Source: a virus. Taken from it: a stretch of 36,601 nucleotides of DNA. Where the stretch lies: UHGV virus genome UHGV-2204638; one strand, given 5' to 3'. Both the position numbers and the translations under genes were made by a program. Positions 8,232 through 12,631 of the stretch are shown here, piece after piece (position 1 is the stretch's first letter; every line of letters begins with the position of its first letter). Under the pieces are notes generated by a model. It worked only from the letters and a program-made list of their open reading frames with translations. It was not told the origin of the DNA and did not search any database.

Positions 8232-8918
8232 TTACCAAGTGCGCGATGACCAGAATACTCTACCTATAACGTGAATTCTTGAACGCCTATCTTCGAAGGT
8301 GAGTATTTCATCTGGATACTCATCTTTATTGAAACTTCTTAGAATCAGACCACCGTCAGGTAAATTGATCAATATTTTAACTCTAAGTAATACGCCATCA
8401 CGTATGGCATAAAGATCCCCATCACGAATAGGAACCGTTTGGGAAACATCAACAGCAACAAAATCTCCATTGTTAAGTACAGGTAGTAAACTATTGCCCC
8501 AAATTTTTACGATCTTTGCATTGGAGACACATACACCAGCTTTTCTTAAATCAATCCTTCTTAGCGGGAACCAGTCTACAGTTGATTCAACTATTTCAGC
8601 CAAACATCCATTACCCGCTGATAACTCGACATCTAGGACTGGAATGTTTGCAAAAATGTCAGGATCTAATGCTGTACTTTCAGCCTCCTTTACAACAAGG
8701 TCTGGGAAAGACGCGTTATCCTCAATGCCCAATTGCAACCACTTTTGAGAAACCCCTAACACTTTAGCAATCTCTTTAATTTTCCGAGGCTGTTGAGTTT
8801 CTCCATTCTCGATTTTCGCTACGGATTGTTGTGAAAGCCCAATTTTTTCAGCTAGTTGCGCCTGACTCATTCCTGCTTTTTCTCTTTCGCTTTTTAGTCT
8901 TTCTGCCAATGTTTTCAC
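8232..8918 (-). CDS. cI: cI-type prophage repressor (HTH-XRE N-terminus, S24 LexA-like peptidase C-terminus)
   Basis: QAQLAEKIGLSQQSVAKIENG is an XRE HTH; the C-terminal domain has the autocleavage-type serine and lysine context. Uses a GTG start with GAGGGGG upstream; divergent from the cro-like gene. Confidence 0.9.
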   Translation of the reverse strand: MKTLAERLKSEREKAGMSQAQLAEKIGLSQQSVAKIENGETQQPRKIKEIAKVLGVSQKWLQLGIEDNASFPDLVVKEAESTALDPDIFANIPVLDVELSAGNGCLAEIVESTVDWFPLRRIDLRKAGVCVSNAKIVKIWGNSLLPVLNNGDFVAVDVSQTVPIRDGDLYAIRDGVLLRVKILINLPDGGLILRSFNKDEYPDEILTFEDRRSRIHVIGRVFWSSRTW

Positions 8919-8944: not shown

Positions 8945-9040
8945 GTTACAACTTTATGTTTTAGCTTTCCAACATCTAAAAGTTGTGATAAAAGTTGTTG
9001 TAGTTGTATAATCGAAGTTATCAACAACTTTACTACTTAC
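8945..9040. promoter_or_regulatory. OR-like operator cluster with pR-like promoter
   Basis: Repeated ACAACTTT / AAAGTTGT half-sites and AAGTTATCAACAACTT. TTGTGA (8983..8988), 18-nt spacer, TATAAT (9007..9012), then RBS and cro ATG at 9056. Confidence 0.5.
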
Positions 9041-9055
9041 AGATAGGAGAAAGCT

Positions 9056-9304
9056 ATGACACCTGAGCAATTAGCCTTATCAGAGGCAATCGCTCTGGCT
9101 GGTGGTCAATCAGAATTGGCTCGGAAGCTCACAGCCAGCAGTGGTCGTTTAGTAAAGCAACAACATGTCTGGAACTGGTTGAACAGAGAAAAGCGTCCCC
9201 CTGCAAAACTCTCGATATTTATTGAAATGACCACTGGCGTATCAAAAGAAAAATTACGTCCAGATATTTTTCAAAAGATTAAAGACTTATCAGATGGAAA
9301 GTAA
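9056..9304 (+). CDS. Cro-like HTH regulator (YdaS-type)
   Basis: 82 aa; position divergent from cI; LALSEAIALAGGQSELARKL HTH; AGGAGA RBS. Confidence 0.75.
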   Translation: MTPEQLALSEAIALAGGQSELARKLTASSGRLVKQQHVWNWLNREKRPPAKLSIFIEMTTGVSKEKLRPDIFQKIKDLSDGK

Positions 9305-9326
9305 CCACAGTTTTAAGGAGATAGCC

Positions 9327-9878
9327 GTGGGTAAGCATCACTGGAAAGTAGAAAAACAGCCTGAGTGGTACGTGAAAGCTGTCAGAAAAACTATCGCGGC
9401 GTTGCCGGGTGGTTACGCTGAAGCTGCTGACTGGCTGGATGTAACAGAGAACGCATTATTTAACCGCCTTCGTGCCGATGGCGATCAGATTTTCCCGCTG
9501 GGATTGGCAATGGTTTTGCAACGTGCTGGTGGAACTCACTTCATTGCTGACGCTGTGGCGCAGTCTGCAAATGGCGTCTTTGTGTCTCTTCCTGACGTCG
9601 AGGATGTGGACAACGCCGATATTAACAAGCGCCTGCTGGAAGTCATTGAACAGATTGGCAGTTATTCCAGACAGATTCGTTCGGCAATCGAAGACGGTGT
9701 GGTGGAACCGCATGAGAAGACAGCAATTAACGACGAGCTGTATCTCTCAATTTCGAAGCTGCAGGAGCATGCAGCACTGGTCTACAAAATCTTTTGCATT
9801 TCAGAAAGTAATGACGCCCGCGAGTGTGCAGCTCCGGGCGCCGTGGCGTGTCGTGACTGTGGAGAAACTAACGCATGA
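9327..9878 (+). CDS. YdaT-like / CII-family regulatory protein
   Basis: Position after cro; resembles Rac YdaT-type proteins (from memory). Start chosen at the GTG at 9327 with AAGGAG 7 nt upstream; the track ORF starts at the ATG at 9294 with no RBS. Confidence 0.6.
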
Positions 9879-10213
9879 ACAGTTTAACAACACACTACCG
9901 TCGCTCGCAACTGATTGCGCTTCCTGTACCGGGTGGAAAAGCGAAGGTGGAGTATTGCTATGCAGTGAATGTACCAGGTGACAGGGAAATTGTAACCCAC
10001 AGCTTTGCCGAGTGGGCTGTGGGTGATTTCAACCGGCAGAAGGAGACAGTCCTTTGCAACAAGTTAACCGCTGGTTCAAAGATCACTACTGAGTGCCCGT
10101 CAGAGTCATTCGTTGGGAGCCGGAAACACAACGTGTTATCTACCTCCGTGAAGGCTATGAGCATGAATGCTTCAGTCCGCTCGAACAGTTTCGTCGTAAA
10201 TTCAGGGAAATAG
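9875..10213 (+). CDS. Hypothetical protein, possible frame disruption
   Basis: 112-aa ORF; its last ~25 aa look non-protein-like while an overlapping frame (10093..10233) reads [35 protein letters not shown]. Confidence 0.3.
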
Positions 10214-10222
10214 GGGTCGGTC

Positions 10223-11164
10223 ATGAGCACTAAATTAACCGGCTATGTATGGGATGGTTGTGCAGCGTCAGGTATGAAATTATCCAGCGTGGCAATTATG
10301 GCCCGCCTGGCTGATTTCAGTAATGACGAAGGTATGTGCTGGCCATCAATTGAAACCATTGCCCGCCAGATTGGCGCGGGGATGAGCACCGTCAGAACGG
10401 CTATCGCACGGCTGGAAGCAGAAGGCTGGTTAACGCGTAAGGCGCGTCGCCAGGGTAACCGCAATGCGTCGAATGTTTATCAGCTTAACGTTGCGAAGCT
10501 TCAGGCAGCGGCATTTTCTCAACTGTCAGATTCTGACCCGTCAAAATCTGACGCATCAAAATCTGACCCGTCAAAATTTGATGCGTCGAAATCTGGCAAA
10601 AAATCGGGTTTTCACCCGTCAGAATCTGGCGGGGATCCGTCAGTAAAATCAAAACATGATCCGTCAGATAAAAAACCTTCTCGTCCGGACGCTTCGCAAC
10701 CGGACACGCAGACGGCTGAACAGGATTTTTTAACTTGCCATCCTGATGCGGTTGTATTCAGCCCTAAAAAGCGCCAGTGGGGAACGCAGGATGATTTGAC
10801 CTGCGCACAGTGGCTCTGGAAAAAAATCATCGCCCTGTACGAGCAGGCTGCCGAATGTGACGGCGAGGTGGTTCGTCCCAAAGAACCGAACTGGACAGCC
10901 TGGGCAAACGAAATTCGCCTGATGTGTGTGCAGGATGGTCGTACTCACAAACAAATCTGCGAGATGTACAGCCGCGTCAGCCGCGATCCGTTCTGGTGCC
11001 GTAACGTGCTCAGCCCGTCGAAGCTGCGGGAAAAATGGGATGAGCTTTCCCTGCGCTTATCGCCGTCCGTCAGCACGTACACAGAAAAACGCGAAGACCC
11101 GTACTTCAAAGCCAGTTACGACAATGTGGACTACAGCCAGATCCCGGCAGGATTCAGGGGGTGA
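10223..11164 (+). CDS. Phage replication initiation protein (O-like, N-terminal wHTH)
   Basis: 313 aa; N-terminal winged-helix domain typical of phage initiators; an internal array of direct repeats encodes a low-complexity S/D/K/P linker. Confidence 0.65.
   Translation: MSTKLTGYVWDGCAASGMKLSSVAIMARLADFSNDEGMCWPSIETIARQIGAGMSTVRTAIARLEAEGWLTRKARRQGNRNASNVYQLNVAKLQAAAFSQLSDSDPSKSDASKSDPSKFDASKSGKKSGFHPSESGGDPSVKSKHDPSDKKPSRPDASQPDTQTAEQDFLTCHPDAVVFSPKKRQWGTQDDLTCAQWLWKKIIALYEQAAECDGEVVRPKEPNWTAWANEIRLMCVQDGRTHKQICEMYSRVSRDPFWCRNVLSPSKLREKWDELSLRLSPSVSTYTEKREDPYFKASYDNVDYSQIPAGFRG
10525..10670. repeat. Iteron-like direct repeats (candidate origin) inside the initiator gene
   Basis: At least six tandem copies of CCGTCA(A/G)AATCTG(A/G)C-like units, followed by an A-rich stretch. 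Confidence 0.55.
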
Positions 11165-11655
11165 GCATGAGTCTTTTGAATGACGTTCAGAAATTCATTG
11201 AAGCCCATCCGGGCTGTACTTCCGGAGACATTGCGGATGCTTTTGCAGGTTACTCACGGCAGCGCGTTCTGCAGTCAGCAAGCAAGTTACGTCAGAGTGG
11301 TCGTGTGGCTCACCGTTGTGAAGGAGATACACACAGACATTTCCAGCGCCTGACTGAGAGAGCGCAGGATCCGGAACCACAACCAGTTCGTGAAACCAGA
11401 CCTGTGCGCAATTTCTATGTCGGCACTAACGACCCGCGGGTGATTTTGTGCCTGACCCGCCAGGCGGAAGAACTGGAGTCCAGGGGCTTATACCGTCGTG
11501 CTGCAACGGTGTGGATGGCGGCATTCCGTGAAAGCCACTCCCAGCCAGAACGAAACAATTTTCTGGCGCGTCGTGAACGGTGTTTACGGAAAAGCAGTAA
11601 GCGGGCTGCATCAGGTGAAGAGTGGTATCTGTCAGGGAATTACGTGGGGGCTTAA
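11161..11655 (+). CDS. Putative PerC-family regulator with N-terminal wHTH
   Basis: EELESRGLYRRAATVWMAAF resembles the PerC/Pch conserved core (from memory); occupies the position after the initiator. Confidence 0.4.
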   Translation: MSMSLLNDVQKFIEAHPGCTSGDIADAFAGYSRQRVLQSASKLRQSGRVAHRCEGDTHRHFQRLTERAQDPEPQPVRETRPVRNFYVGTNDPRVILCLTRQAEELESRGLYRRAATVWMAAFRESHSQPERNNFLARRERCLRKSSKRAASGEEWYLSGNYVGA

Positions 11656-12308
11656 TGAGTAATAAATATTGCCAGGCGCTGGTGGAACTGCGGAACAAAC
11701 CAGCCCATGAACTGAAGGAAGTGGGCGATCAGTGGCGCACGCCGGACAACATTTTCTGGGGAATTAACACCCTGTTTGGCCCGTTTGTTCTGGATCTGTT
11801 CACTGACGGTGATAACGCCAAATGTGCCGCGTATTACACGGCGGAAGACAACGCGCTGGCGCATGACTGGTCAAAACGTCTTGCGGAGCTTAAAGGGGCT
11901 GCCTTTGGTAATCCCCCATACAGCCGCGCCAGTCAGCATGAGGGGCAATACATCACCGGCATGCGTTACATCATGAAACATGCCAGTGCCATGCGTGATA
12001 AGGGCGGGCGCTATGTTTTCCTGATCAAAGCTGCCACCAGCGAAGTGTGGTGGCCGGAAGATGCGGATCATATTGCTTTTATTCGCGGGCGTATTGGTTT
12101 TGAACTGCCTGCCTGGTTTATCCCGAAGGACGATAAGCAGGTGCCGACAGGCGCTTTCTTCGCTGGCGCTATTGCTGTTTTCGACAAGACCTGGAAGGGA
12201 CCGGCAATCAGCTACATCGGGCGTGATGAACTTGAGGCATGTGGTGAGGCGTTTCTGGCGCAGGTTCGCCAGCAGGCGGAAAAACTGGTCAGGGAGATGG
12301 CGGCATGA
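11655..12308 (+). CDS. Phage Dam-type N6-adenine DNA methyltransferase (orphan)
   Basis: NPPYS catalytic motif. Start chosen at the ATG at 11655, which overlaps the upstream stop as TAATG; the track ORF starts at 11622. No restriction-enzyme partner is adjacent. Confidence 0.8.
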   Translation: MSNKYCQALVELRNKPAHELKEVGDQWRTPDNIFWGINTLFGPFVLDLFTDGDNAKCAAYYTAEDNALAHDWSKRLAELKGAAFGNPPYSRASQHEGQYITGMRYIMKHASAMRDKGGRYVFLIKAATSEVWWPEDADHIAFIRGRIGFELPAWFIPKDDKQVPTGAFFAGAIAVFDKTWKGPAISYIGRDELEACGEAFLAQVRQQAEKLVREMAA

Positions 12309-12631
12309 CGACGTTAACTCAATGCCAGCAGCAGGTGCTGGATATGCTGATTTCTTACCAGAAAGAACGTGGCTTCCCGCCAACCAATCAGGAGGTGGCA
12401 ACCATGCTGGGATACCGTTCAGTGAATGCAGCGGTGGAGCATCTTCGCGCACTGGAGAAAAAAGGCGTCATCACGATAAAGCGTGGCGTGGCCCGGGGGA
12501 TCACGCTTCATACCGCAGTGAAGGACGACGACAGCGAAGCGGTCGGTATCATCCGCGCACTGCTTGCCGGTGAGGAGAACGCCAGGTTGCGTGCAGCCCA
12601 CTGGTTACATGAGAGGGGCTTGAAAGTATGA
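12305..12631 (+). CDS. LexA N-terminal-domain-like DNA-binding protein without peptidase domain
   Basis: 108 aa; QQQVLDMLISYQKERGFPPTNQEVATMLGYRSVNAAVEHLRALEKKGVI resembles the LexA winged-helix domain. Confidence 0.55.
   Translation: MTTLTQCQQQVLDMLISYQKERGFPPTNQEVATMLGYRSVNAAVEHLRALEKKGVITIKRGVARGITLHTAVKDDDSEAVGIIRALLAGEENARLRAAHWLHERGLKV

Follow-up and report, generated by a model that had tools for sequence, protein, structure and literature searches.

Lambdoid origins consist of iterons in the middle of gene O together with an AT-rich tract, and the iterons, 4 or 6 in number, lengthen the protein (PMC7466680). The stretch of viral DNA analysed here (UHGV virus genome UHGV-2204638, 36,601 nucleotides, hereafter the window) carries a set of short repeats inside a gene of the early region, and the question is whether these repeats form part of an origin, serve some other purpose on the DNA, or simply code for a repetitive peptide. 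Our reading, to which we give a probability of roughly 0.78 on sequence comparisons, is that the array forms the initiator-binding half of the prophage origin and lies within the initiator gene, where the linker is encoded.

The initiator gene and its protein

The earlier note had taken the ORF that holds the repeats for a replication initiator, and profile matching bears this out, as the protein matches PHROG 391 'replication initiation O-like' at E = 2e-134. Homologues include E. coli K-12 yfdO and SfIV gp41, and the genes of SfII, SfIV and Kati, annotated as replication protein O or primosomal protein, are 98–99% identical to it by megablast. The gene and its two folded parts are:

10223–11164, plus strand: replication initiator gene, 313 aa (PHROG 391 and annotation of relatives)
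10223–10519, plus strand: N-terminal winged-helix DNA-binding domain, aa 1–99 (Pfam, AF2, Foldseek)
10718–11056, plus strand: C-terminal domain, aa 166–278 (homology to the C-domains of lambda O and phi80 gp15)

In the N-domain, residues 23–70 match Pfam HTH_36 (PF13730, E = 3.5e-12), DnaD_N is matched at E = 0.0015, and the AF2 model runs helix-helix-helix-helix-strand-strand-helix with a pLDDT of about 70–87. Foldseek with the full model returned MarR/ArsR winged helices and the DnaD N-domain 2v79 at weak E-values of 0.01–0.1; at the level of a predicted structure, this supports a winged helix that is DnaD/MarR-like and nothing more specific. BLASTP detected no similarity of the N-domain to lambda O or phi80 gp15, and a Pfam scan of the whole protein gave no match to Phage_rep_O (PF04492) at E ≤ 0.01, a family that matches lambda O at 6e-36 and phi80 gp15 at 6e-25. 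The C-domain aligns with lambda O at 36% identity (aa 131–277, E = 4e-26) and with phi80 gp15 at 35% identity (E = 2e-25) by BLASTP, many O proteins resemble it at 39% identity by tblastn, and the protein ends in a conserved tail, ...IPxGFRG. The name 'Replication protein 15' has been carried over to one homologue (P0081). We presume that the N-domain (aa 1–99) is the reader of the iterons and that the C-domain (aa 166–278) is the module which recruits the replisome.

Six near-palindromic units in linker-coding DNA

A 13-mer with the consensus RTCARAWTCTGAY occurs as six near-palindromic units at 10525–10630, which is gene nt 303–408 or aa 101–136, between the winged helix and the C-domain. 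The units and the spacing between them, to which no strand is assigned, are:

10525–10597: iterons 1–5, tandem 13-bp near-palindromes with 2-bp spacers, 15-bp period
10525–10537: iteron 1, GTCAGATTCTGAC
10540–10552: iteron 2, GTCAAAATCTGAC
10555–10567: iteron 3, ATCAAAATCTGAC
10570–10582: iteron 4, GTCAAAATTTGAT
10585–10597: iteron 5, GTCGAAATCTGGC
10598–10617: degenerate spacer between iterons 5 and 6, AAAAAATCGGGTTTTCACCC
10618–10630: iteron 6, stand-alone, GTCAGAATCTGGC, with an equivalent (gene nt about 396–426) in most type-A loci

When up to two mismatches were allowed, all six sites fell within these 106 bp and no further site was present on either strand in the rest of the 36.6-kb window; counted as strand-matches, the window holds 7 against 0.95 expected from shuffles. 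The earlier note had described at least six tandem repeats reaching to about 10670. Five of the six are tandem and the sixth lies 33 bp on from the fifth, a distance of 2 × 15 + 3, and the more distant end is explained by two 'CCGTCAG' half-units, GATCCGTCAGTAA at 10634 and GATCCGTCAGATAA at 10658. The spacer at 10598–10617 is probably a decayed unit plus 3 bp, and the stand-alone position of iteron 6 suggests from sequence that the binding unit is the 13-mer GTCA...TGRC. Every unit was recovered as a near-palindrome by a repeat search, unit 1 with perfect arms of 6+6.

Several other patterns in this segment were set aside. Tandem Repeats Finder reported 10532–10595 both as 4.3 copies of a 15-bp period and as 2.1 copies of a 30-bp period, and the 30-bp super-period, which comes from alternating CC and GC spacers in the window, is not conserved in the pentapeptide patterns of relatives, so we attach no meaning to it. 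A small terminator-like hairpin with a T-run on the minus strand (10618–10605, between iterons 5 and 6) is one of 4 such sites where 4.6 are expected and was treated as chance; the peptide coded by its stem (S/A/G-G-F-H/D) differs among homologues. A match of the palindromes to a known RNA family, a miRNA hairpin, was spurious, scoring 30.7 bits against a gathering score of 97.

A proposed path from derepression to helicase recruitment

Upstream of the initiator the gene order is a cI-like gene (8232–8918, minus strand), a YdaS/Cro-like gene, a CII-like gene, a DUF4222 gene and then the initiator itself. One promoter match is relevant here:

8983–9012, plus strand: pR-like sigma-70 promoter match TTGTGA-18-TATAAT, 10 of 12 consensus positions, 5′ of the cro-like gene

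Sigma-70-like sites are no more numerous in the region than shuffles predict; judged by its position, this promoter would have the initiator gene and the repeats transcribed rightward. We propose that derepression would start rightward early transcription and hence production of the initiator, that dimers formed through the N-terminal winged helix would bind the six 13-bp palindromes (a single unit being, for example, GTCAGAATCTGAC), that the loaded array would destabilise the adjoining A-rich box at 10631–10681 until it melts, and that the lambda-O-like C-domain would then recruit the host replicative helicase. The distance from the GTCA to the TGAC core of a unit is 9 bp, about one helical turn. 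These steps, from initiator binding through melting of the box to helicase recruitment and origin firing, are ones that we infer, and 'candidate origin', the wording of the earlier note, stays right. A scan of 17 other ORFs of the early region gave no match to the P, DnaC or DnaB families. The C-domain is of the type that binds P in lambda, yet no loader or helicase gene lies alongside. A P-like neighbour was recognised by eye at L013, a type-B locus with a different C-terminal tail.

The geometry of the array deserves attention, as known iteron origins have a spacing of about two turns. Here, at a period of 15 bp, each site is rotated by about 154 degrees round the helix relative to its neighbour, and thus a wrapped O-some of the lambda kind is no obvious fit. 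An alternative that we regard as unlikely, while keeping it in view, is an origin of a different make from the lambda O-some: dimers would spiral round straight DNA with the 15-bp period of 1.4 turns, Dam methylation or SeqA would gate firing at the two conserved GATCCGTCAG boxes next to the array, and the helicase would be recruited without a phage loader, perhaps via the IPxGFRG tail. Most likely, the array represents a well-known kind of element with a new specificity, in an arrangement that is ordinary for lambda-like prophages; it is unusual in its short period of 15 bp, which stays in frame, in GATC boxes that are invariant and in having no helicase-loader gene close by.

The A-rich box and its GATC motifs

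The candidate for strand opening lies directly downstream of iteron 6:

10631–10681, no strand assigned: A-rich box with two GATC-bearing half-sites, conserved, proposed DNA-unwinding element

An A-rich stretch adjacent to the repeats had been noticed before, and it can be located at two places, namely an A6 run at 10598–10603 and the segment 10631–10675, where the A fraction reaches 44%, the highest in the gene and among the top 1% for the window. The 40-bp stretch of lowest stability in the gene is 10642–10681 (GC 30%, in the 2% tail of the window). The box contains two GATCCGTCAG motifs, and at the DNA level its consensus across relatives is GggGATCCGTcAGTAA...GATCCAtcAg; all 70 of the 70 loci have the first GATC (10634) and 63 of them the second (10658), across two N-domain subtypes. 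A-rich 12-mer repeats follow the iterons in types C and D as well. Together with the O-like initiator and with the constraint at the DNA level, the co-variation with the N-domain and the lambda- and phi80-like position described below, this least stable A-rich segment next to the array supports the candidate-origin reading of the earlier note, which all the computational tests favour.

These observations bear on two other roles that the DNA could have. In the first, the initiator-binding sites would serve mainly autoregulation, copy control, handcuffing or incompatibility, and strands would be opened elsewhere in the early region. Repeats of one kind do serve both initiation and negative control in iteron plasmids (PMC4980987), the AT content of the box is only moderate, 70% over 40 bp, with the G+C-containing GATCCGTCAG motifs interrupting it, and no DnaA box with at most one mismatch was found near the array (the best match has 2 mismatches and lies far from it), nor a convincing IHF site, although one IHF-like site with 1 mismatch exists. 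However, the 36.6-kb window holds no other cluster of the 13-mer, the A-rich box is conserved as DNA together with the array, and the same position is the origin in the homologous arrangement of lambda and phi80 (PMC7466680). We therefore consider a purely regulatory array to be quite improbable.

In the second, the motifs would be read by a factor other than the initiator, whether Dam/SeqA at GATC, the product of the downstream PerC/MarR-like winged-helix gene (11161–11655) or a host protein, and the array would be a regulatory or sequestration site. The near-invariance of the GATC motifs fits this, as does a phage Dam methylase gene at 11622–12308, two genes downstream of the initiator; moreover, GATCCGTCAGTAA in the box is common to the two N-domain subtypes and thus tracks N-domain specificity less tightly than the tandem units do. 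Against it, the tandem 13-mers follow the type of N-domain and not the downstream gene, since type-A arrays sit with varied downstream genes (methylases, ParB-like, yfdN-like), SfIV lacks the methylase and still has the array (PMC3851460), and the GTCA core is common to subtype A iterons, subtype B iterons and the GATC box. Little room seems left for such a factor as the main reader of the array.

Selection acts on the DNA of the repeats

The repeats are in frame with the ORF 10223–11164 and encode SD(P/A)SK pentapeptides, and the linker at aa 103–164 is predicted to be disordered, with a pLDDT below 50 in the AF2 model, so that they do encode a linker as had been proposed. Whether the code or the DNA is under constraint was read from the wobble positions of 318 units in 61 species-level genes. 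Inside the 13-mer these positions carry 1.3–1.75 bits, with TCA present in 305 of the 318 units and T at the wobble position of the TCT codon in 277, whereas the two spacer bases, which set the P/A/T residue, carry only 0.55–0.84 bits; in the N-domain of these genes, where wobble positions are saturated, the mean wobble information over conserved four-fold codons is 0.37 bits. A codon count made without reference to the motif gave the same picture: TCA and TCT make up 83% of Ser codons in the linker vs 36% outside, AGC makes up 4% vs 28%, and AAA makes up 97% of Lys codons vs 67%. A K to E swap is tolerated where the A to G change in the DNA improves the dyad. The repeats are thus constrained as DNA and not as protein.

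A mere low-complexity, slippage-prone linker (SDPSK)n with no function on the DNA would account for a 15-bp period equal to 5 codons in frame, for a disordered peptide and for unit numbers that differ between relatives, but it is strongly disfavoured, because wobble bases are fixed while the spacer bases that determine amino acids and the K/E/N/D position vary, because a dyad that is meaningless for the protein is present in every unit, and because sister types with 22–23-bp periods are read in three frames.

The array co-varies with the N-domain and is exchanged with it

Related genes (61, from about 20 enterobacterial genera) carry the 13-mer at the same gene position, and at ≤2 mismatches it is present in all type-A genes except the divergent L018. 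In the 14 loci with other or divergent N-domains the type-A 13-mer was found in none (0/14), despite their common C-domain, and these loci have different arrays of their own at the equivalent spot: a 15-bp array in type B, GTCAAnnnTTGAC, 22 bp × 4.8 in L069, 23 bp × 5.3 in L067, 23 bp in L014 and 21/24 bp in L075. The 22- and 23-bp arrays cannot be protein repeats, since their periods are not multiples of 3 and they are read in several frames. Within type A no finer covariation can be followed, because there is essentially no variation in either the recognition helix (STVRT...) or the iteron consensus.

The repeats are not absent from isolated phages, as megablast aligns SfII, SfIV, Kati and others with the gene from end to end, unbroken, at about 98–99% identity, and six units were counted directly in SfIV. 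When repeat number was compared across relatives, as had been suggested, it was found to vary, with variants having as few as two full units; the two-unit array that was examined is a strongly contracted one in a degraded Salmonella prophage. A plasmid collection considered as a source of natural mini-replicons yielded for the most part prophages, in records that are large or wrongly assigned, or else circularised phage genomes. In one 16-kb circle with lambdoid early and lysis genes only, the recorded sequence of the type-B initiator contains a frameshift; this circle is unusable as a case of autonomous replication.

The alignments also show where modules are joined. phiNP aligns with gene nt 2–479 only and mEp460_4F5 with nt 443–942 only, and in many loci the match covers just residues 1 to about 168; by these alignments, the N-domain, the iterons and the A-rich box are exchanged as one block. 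It is very doubtful that the main role of the array is that of a hotspot for recombination or module exchange, joining N- and C-terminal initiator modules, since, although mosaic boundaries lie close by (gene nt about 443–479) and many relatives have only the part up to about residue 168 in common, the junctions fall downstream of the array and the A-rich box and not inside the array, and the conserved palindromes and the co-variation with the N-domain would be left unexplained.

Comparison with known origins

The lambda-like arrangement proposed earlier holds at the level of position: the annotated iterons lie at nt 349–433 of lambda O and nt 365–441 of phi80 gene 15, and the present array at nt 303–408. 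As in the lambda ori, several direct repeats, each of them an imperfect inverted repeat, sit in the middle part of an initiator gene of the rightward early operon, in the DNA that codes for the linker, and an A-rich tract follows on the side of the homologous C-domain. Unlike lambda, the N-domain here is HTH_36 instead of Phage_rep_O, 13-bp iterons repeat with a 15-bp in-frame period instead of roughly 18–19 bp at 20–24 bp, there are six sites instead of four (ITN1–4), the A-rich tract is weaker and broken by two conserved GATC-bearing half-sites, and no P gene follows the initiator. phi80 gene 15 likewise has four annotated gp15-binding sites, an A-rich tract and then a 35%-identical C-domain, but its N-domain is Phage_rep_O, its period is 20–21 bp, its iteron is unrelated (TTCCCGAAAACGGGAA-like) and the P-like gene 14 comes next. 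The 6-iteron origins of Stx phages likewise have repeats that lengthen the protein (PMC7466680).

In P22 and L, gene 18 contains iterons of its own, and for phage L six imprecise 11-bp repeats were proposed as the origin from sequence alone (PMC8022706). Their initiators are distantly related lambdoid ones, each with its own internal iteron set, and phage L shares with the present case both the short repeats and the kind of inference; the proteins and repeats themselves are unrelated, and P22 and L have their own DnaB-type helicase (gene 12), absent here. The iteron plasmids pSC101, R6K, RK2 and P1 oriR also combine a winged-helix initiator, tandem iterons and an AT-rich unwinding element alongside (PMC4980987). 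Their iterons of 17–22 bp with about two-turn spacing lie outside the rep gene, whereas those here (13/15 bp) are translated, and they have one or more DnaA boxes, none of which was found near the present array. P1 oriR needs Dam-methylated GATC sites, a possible parallel to the conserved GATC boxes. Among the DnaD-like replisome organisers of Firmicutes phages, SPP1 G38P has its oriL within gene 38. The N-terminal winged helix here is DnaD-like (Foldseek 2v79, 9a5c) and would likewise have the origin in its own gene; the likeness in sequence and fold is weak, and the C-domain is lambda-O-like, not DnaD/DnaB-2-like.

A search of the accessible literature found no report of binding or replication for the 13-mer element, and none of the papers searched contains the iteron sequence; the SfIV genome paper mentions a replication module by homology only, and papers on yfdO/CPS-53 do not address the origin. 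Current annotation names such genes merely 'helix-turn-helix' or 'primosomal' protein and leaves the origin unmarked. The iteron RTCARAWTCTGAY with the A-rich/GATC box offers annotators a sequence signature of the origin, by which prophages could be sorted into replication-specificity (incompatibility) types, and the segment is a compact candidate replicon for vectors. It is moreover a clean example of dual coding, in which the grammar of a binding site dictates the sequence of a disordered linker; conceptually the lambda paradigm is extended and not changed. Initiators of this type are met with very often: among 5426 complete E. coli genomes, 1576 contain 80% or more of the gene, the K-12 copy being truncated, and the type occurs as well in the serotype-converting Shigella phages SfII and SfIV.

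The array and its gene

The prophage in the window is lambdoid, of the SfII/SfIV/CPS-53 type, and its early region is arranged as follows.

Genes of the early region in their order
8232–8918, minus strand: cI-like repressor
9056–9304, early right operon: YdaS/Cro-like protein
9294–9878, early right operon: CII-like protein
9875–10213, early right operon: DUF4222 protein
10223–11164, early right operon: initiator
11161–11655, plus strand, early right operon, next after the initiator: PerC/MarR-like protein
11622–12308, early right operon, after the PerC/MarR-like gene: Dam methylase
12305–12631, plus strand, between Dam methylase and RusA: LexA-like DNA-binding protein
Then, in this order, early right operon: RusA, KilA-N, DUF968/HNH, Q

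The gene at 11161–11655 sits where lambda has P and overlaps the initiator stop codon by 4 nt; its 164-aa product is a MarR-like winged helix in the N-terminal part and a PerC domain (yfdN family) in the C-terminal part. The 108-aa product of 12305–12631 is a stand-alone LexA DNA-binding domain without a protease domain.

Six copies of a 13-mer start at 10525, 10540, 10555, 10570, 10585 and 10618, and their 15-bp period was recovered both by Tandem Repeats Finder and by a repeat search, in which every unit is a near-palindrome GTCAGA-W-TCTGAC. At up to two mismatches these are the only sites in 36.6 kb, where 0.95 matches are expected. The earlier note had described tandem repeats that encode a linker rich in S, D, K and P; we confirmed the six 13-mers in the sequence, and the units are translated in frame to SD(P/A)SK pentapeptides within the linker. 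The remainder of the stretch that it had marked, to ∼10670, is accounted for by two additional half-units (GATCCGTCAGTAA at 10634 and GATCCGTCAGATAA at 10658) and an A-rich run. A terminator-like hairpin on the minus strand at 10605–10618, between iterons 5 and 6 (CGGGTGAAAACCCG, then ATTTTTT), was considered and rejected: the site count does not exceed the shuffle expectation and the encoded peptide varies among homologues.

The AlphaFold2 model of the initiator has a winged-helix N-domain (aa 1–99), a disordered linker (aa 103–164, pLDDT <50), part of which the repeats encode, and a helical C-domain (aa 164–278). Genes of SfII, SfIV, Kati and other isolated phages, annotated as ‘replication protein O’ or ‘primosomal protein’, are 98–99% identical to the initiator gene; 1576 of the 5426 complete E. 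coli genomes contain at least 80% of it, and a 5′-truncated copy adjoins yfdN in K-12 derivatives.

Likeness to known origins

Directly 3′ of iteron 6 lies GGGGATCCGTCAGTAAAATCAAAACATGATCCGTCAGATAAAAAACC, an A-rich box with the strongest A-strand bias in the gene. The gene's least stable 40-bp window, 10642–10681 (GC 30%), falls in this box and is in the 2% tail of all such windows of the 36.6 kb. The box is conserved as DNA in genes with the window protein's N-domain type (type A) and with its sister winged-helix type (type B): GATCCGT-AGTAA is essentially invariant, wobble bases of GAT, TCA and GTA included, and the first GATC (10634–10637) is present in 70 of 70 loci, the second (10658–10661) in 63. 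In two other N-domain types (C and D) this place is taken by A-rich 12-mer repeats, and neither a DnaA box nor a good IHF site was found near the window's box, which we read as a candidate unwinding element.

In lambda, an A-rich tract comes after the four annotated O-binding iterons (gene nt 349–433) and is itself succeeded by a region that aligns with the window initiator (36% identity, E = 4e-26), and in phi80 four gp15-binding sites (gene nt 365–441) are followed in the same way (35% identity). Lambdoid origins consist of iterons and an AT-rich tract in mid-O, a single iteron being an imperfect inverted repeat to which an O dimer binds, and no more than two iterons with the AT tract are needed for unwinding; in Stx phages the iterons number six and O is longer to match (PMC7466680). 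In P22 and L, gene 18 contains iterons of its own, and for L six 11-bp repeats were proposed as the origin from sequence (PMC8022706). The window element agrees with such origins in where it lies, how its repeats are built, the A-rich tract beside it, the homology of the C-domain and its modularity, and the likeness to the lambda ori in gene O that had been noted earlier is borne out by the equivalent position, the tract and the C-domain. It departs from the strict lambda O family in two features: its N-domain is Pfam HTH_36, not Phage_rep_O, and a scan of the 17 other early-region ORFs yielded no P-type loader and no homologue of DnaC or DnaB. Its short unit (13 bp) sets it apart from known iteron origins, as does its 15-bp period (∼1.4 helical turns), at which neighbouring dimers would lie on nearly opposite faces of the helix.

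We give a probability of about 0.78 to the reading that the array is the initiator-binding part of an origin. Initiator dimers would bind the 13-mers via the winged helix (9 bp separate the GTCA and TGAC cores, a usual distance where a dimer touches successive major grooves), occupancy of the array would promote melting of the adjoining A-rich box, and the O-like C-domain would recruit the host helicase. An array that binds the initiator mainly for control, with the origin elsewhere, would involve the same protein and sites; it is unlikely beside the lambda-like setting, from which we infer that the origin fires at the array. The candidate-origin finding is correct, with good support from comparative evidence; the array is to be expected in a lambdoid replication module, and its specificity type is new. 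Experiments may be worthwhile on the spacing of 15 bp, on the invariant boxes with GATC and on a possible helicase recruitment without a loader.

Several observations adjoin these regions. Both GATC sites lie within GATCCGTCAG boxes, with GAT as the Asp codon in every case; SfIV is without Dam methylase (PMC3851460), the window's Dam gene lies two genes downstream of the initiator, and methylation may be linked to origin use. Tandem A-rich 12-mers follow the iterons of two other initiator types, in loci L067 (2768–2801, ACAGAGAATACA × 2.8) and L014 (2780–2822, ACAAGAGAATAC × 3.7); they encode TENT/TQEI peptides and are the AT-rich element in repeated form. At 10682–10691 a perfect 10-bp palindrome, CGTCCGGACG, adjoins the box near the N/C module mosaic junction and is not conserved in most relatives. 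Right of the A-rich tract, lambda (L084, nt ∼862–885) has the hyphenated dyad TTCGTCAGA-GAAT-TCTGGCGAA and phi80 (L082, nt ∼8779–8802) has TTCGTCCGA-GAAT-TCTGACGAA; the arms equal the type-A half-site GTCAGA/TCTGAC (compare 10525–10630), a match that may be due to chance, to common ancestry or to a host factor in common. An extreme C-terminal peptide, ...(I/L)P-x-GFR(G/S) (11092–11161 in the window; compared in L005, L024, L057, L067, L069 and L013), is conserved, irrespective of N-domain type, in initiators without a downstream P- or DnaC-like gene, and may be where a host replication protein docks; a lambda-P-like ORF follows the gene of a type-B relative whose tail differs (...WEDVL).

Co-variation of arrays with the N-domain

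The 13-mer is absent from all 14 loci coding for initiator relatives with other N-domains (including the divergent one of L018), and such loci carry their own arrays at the same spot of the gene.

Arrays of loci with other N-domains
Type B: 15-bp units, GTCAAnnnTTGAC
L069: 22-bp unit × 4.8
L067: 23-bp unit × 5.3
L014: 23-bp unit
L075: alternating 21 and 24 bp

Periods of 22 and 23 bp are not multiples of three, hence these units are read in differing frames and can be DNA elements only. Citrobacter phage phiNP shares only nt 2–479 of the gene, phage mEp460_4F5 only nt 443–942, and ∼40 loci match just residues 1 to ∼168; these mosaic boundaries indicate that N-domain, array and A-rich box move as a single specificity module. 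Because arrays co-vary with the N-domain, binding of the 13-mers by the initiator is strongly suggested. The Dam methylase and a winged-helix protein are encoded downstream, and recognition of the array by another factor, such as Dam/SeqA or that protein, is quite improbable beside this co-variation.

Selection on the repeats in relatives

From 80 genomes we took a single homologous locus for each species, and 61 of these genes had the same N-domain type (66–100% amino acid identity in the N-domain), from Escherichia, Salmonella-like genera, Citrobacter, Enterobacter, Kluyvera, Pantoea, Rahnella, Ewingella, Yersinia, Providencia, Proteus and others. All 61 carry 2–9 copies of the 13-mer (up to three mismatches) in a shared frame and gene position. 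Of the 318 units, 305 have TCA as the first Ser codon and 277 have T at the wobble of the second; wobble bases within the 13-mer are almost fixed (1.3–1.75 bits), and conservation is lowest (0.55–0.84 bits) at the two spacer bases, which decide between Pro, Ala and Thr. Conserved four-fold codons in the N-domain of the same genes are near saturation at the wobble (mean 0.37 bits). Codons counted by amino acid alone, thus without selection on the motif, were biased between linker and elsewhere as well: Ser TCA plus TCT 83% versus 36%, Ser AGC 4% versus 28%, and Lys AAA 97% versus 67%. Charge-reversing K to E changes are common, and the underlying A-to-G transition perfects the dyad. Fixed wobble with variable amino-acid-choosing bases is the pattern of selection on a DNA site and the opposite of peptide selection; function of the repeats at the DNA level is close to certain and, although they do encode linker, a pure protein linker is very improbable. 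A recombination hotspot is just as improbable a reading of the array.

Repeat number was compared across relatives, as the earlier note had proposed, and the array is kept. The six-unit form predominates (313-aa cluster, 5414 member sequences); contraction is seen far less often (87 members in the 303-aa cluster, a handful in those of 287 and 282 aa), and Klebsiella has expanded arrays of up to ∼10 pentapeptides. A Salmonella prophage remnant at icd, without head and tail genes, has an array of just two units. The whole gene aligns in one megablast piece in isolated phages SfII, SfIV, Kati and others, and a direct count gave six units for both SfIV and a Shigella flexneri prophage. Finally, a 15,977-bp circular E. 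coli ‘plasmid’ (L085, NZ_CP148542.1) has lambdoid immunity, early and lysis genes only, with a DnaC-like ATPase and a type-B initiator that carries a frameshift as deposited; such a circle may be a lambda-dv-like mini-replicon that arose naturally, or an artefact of assembly.
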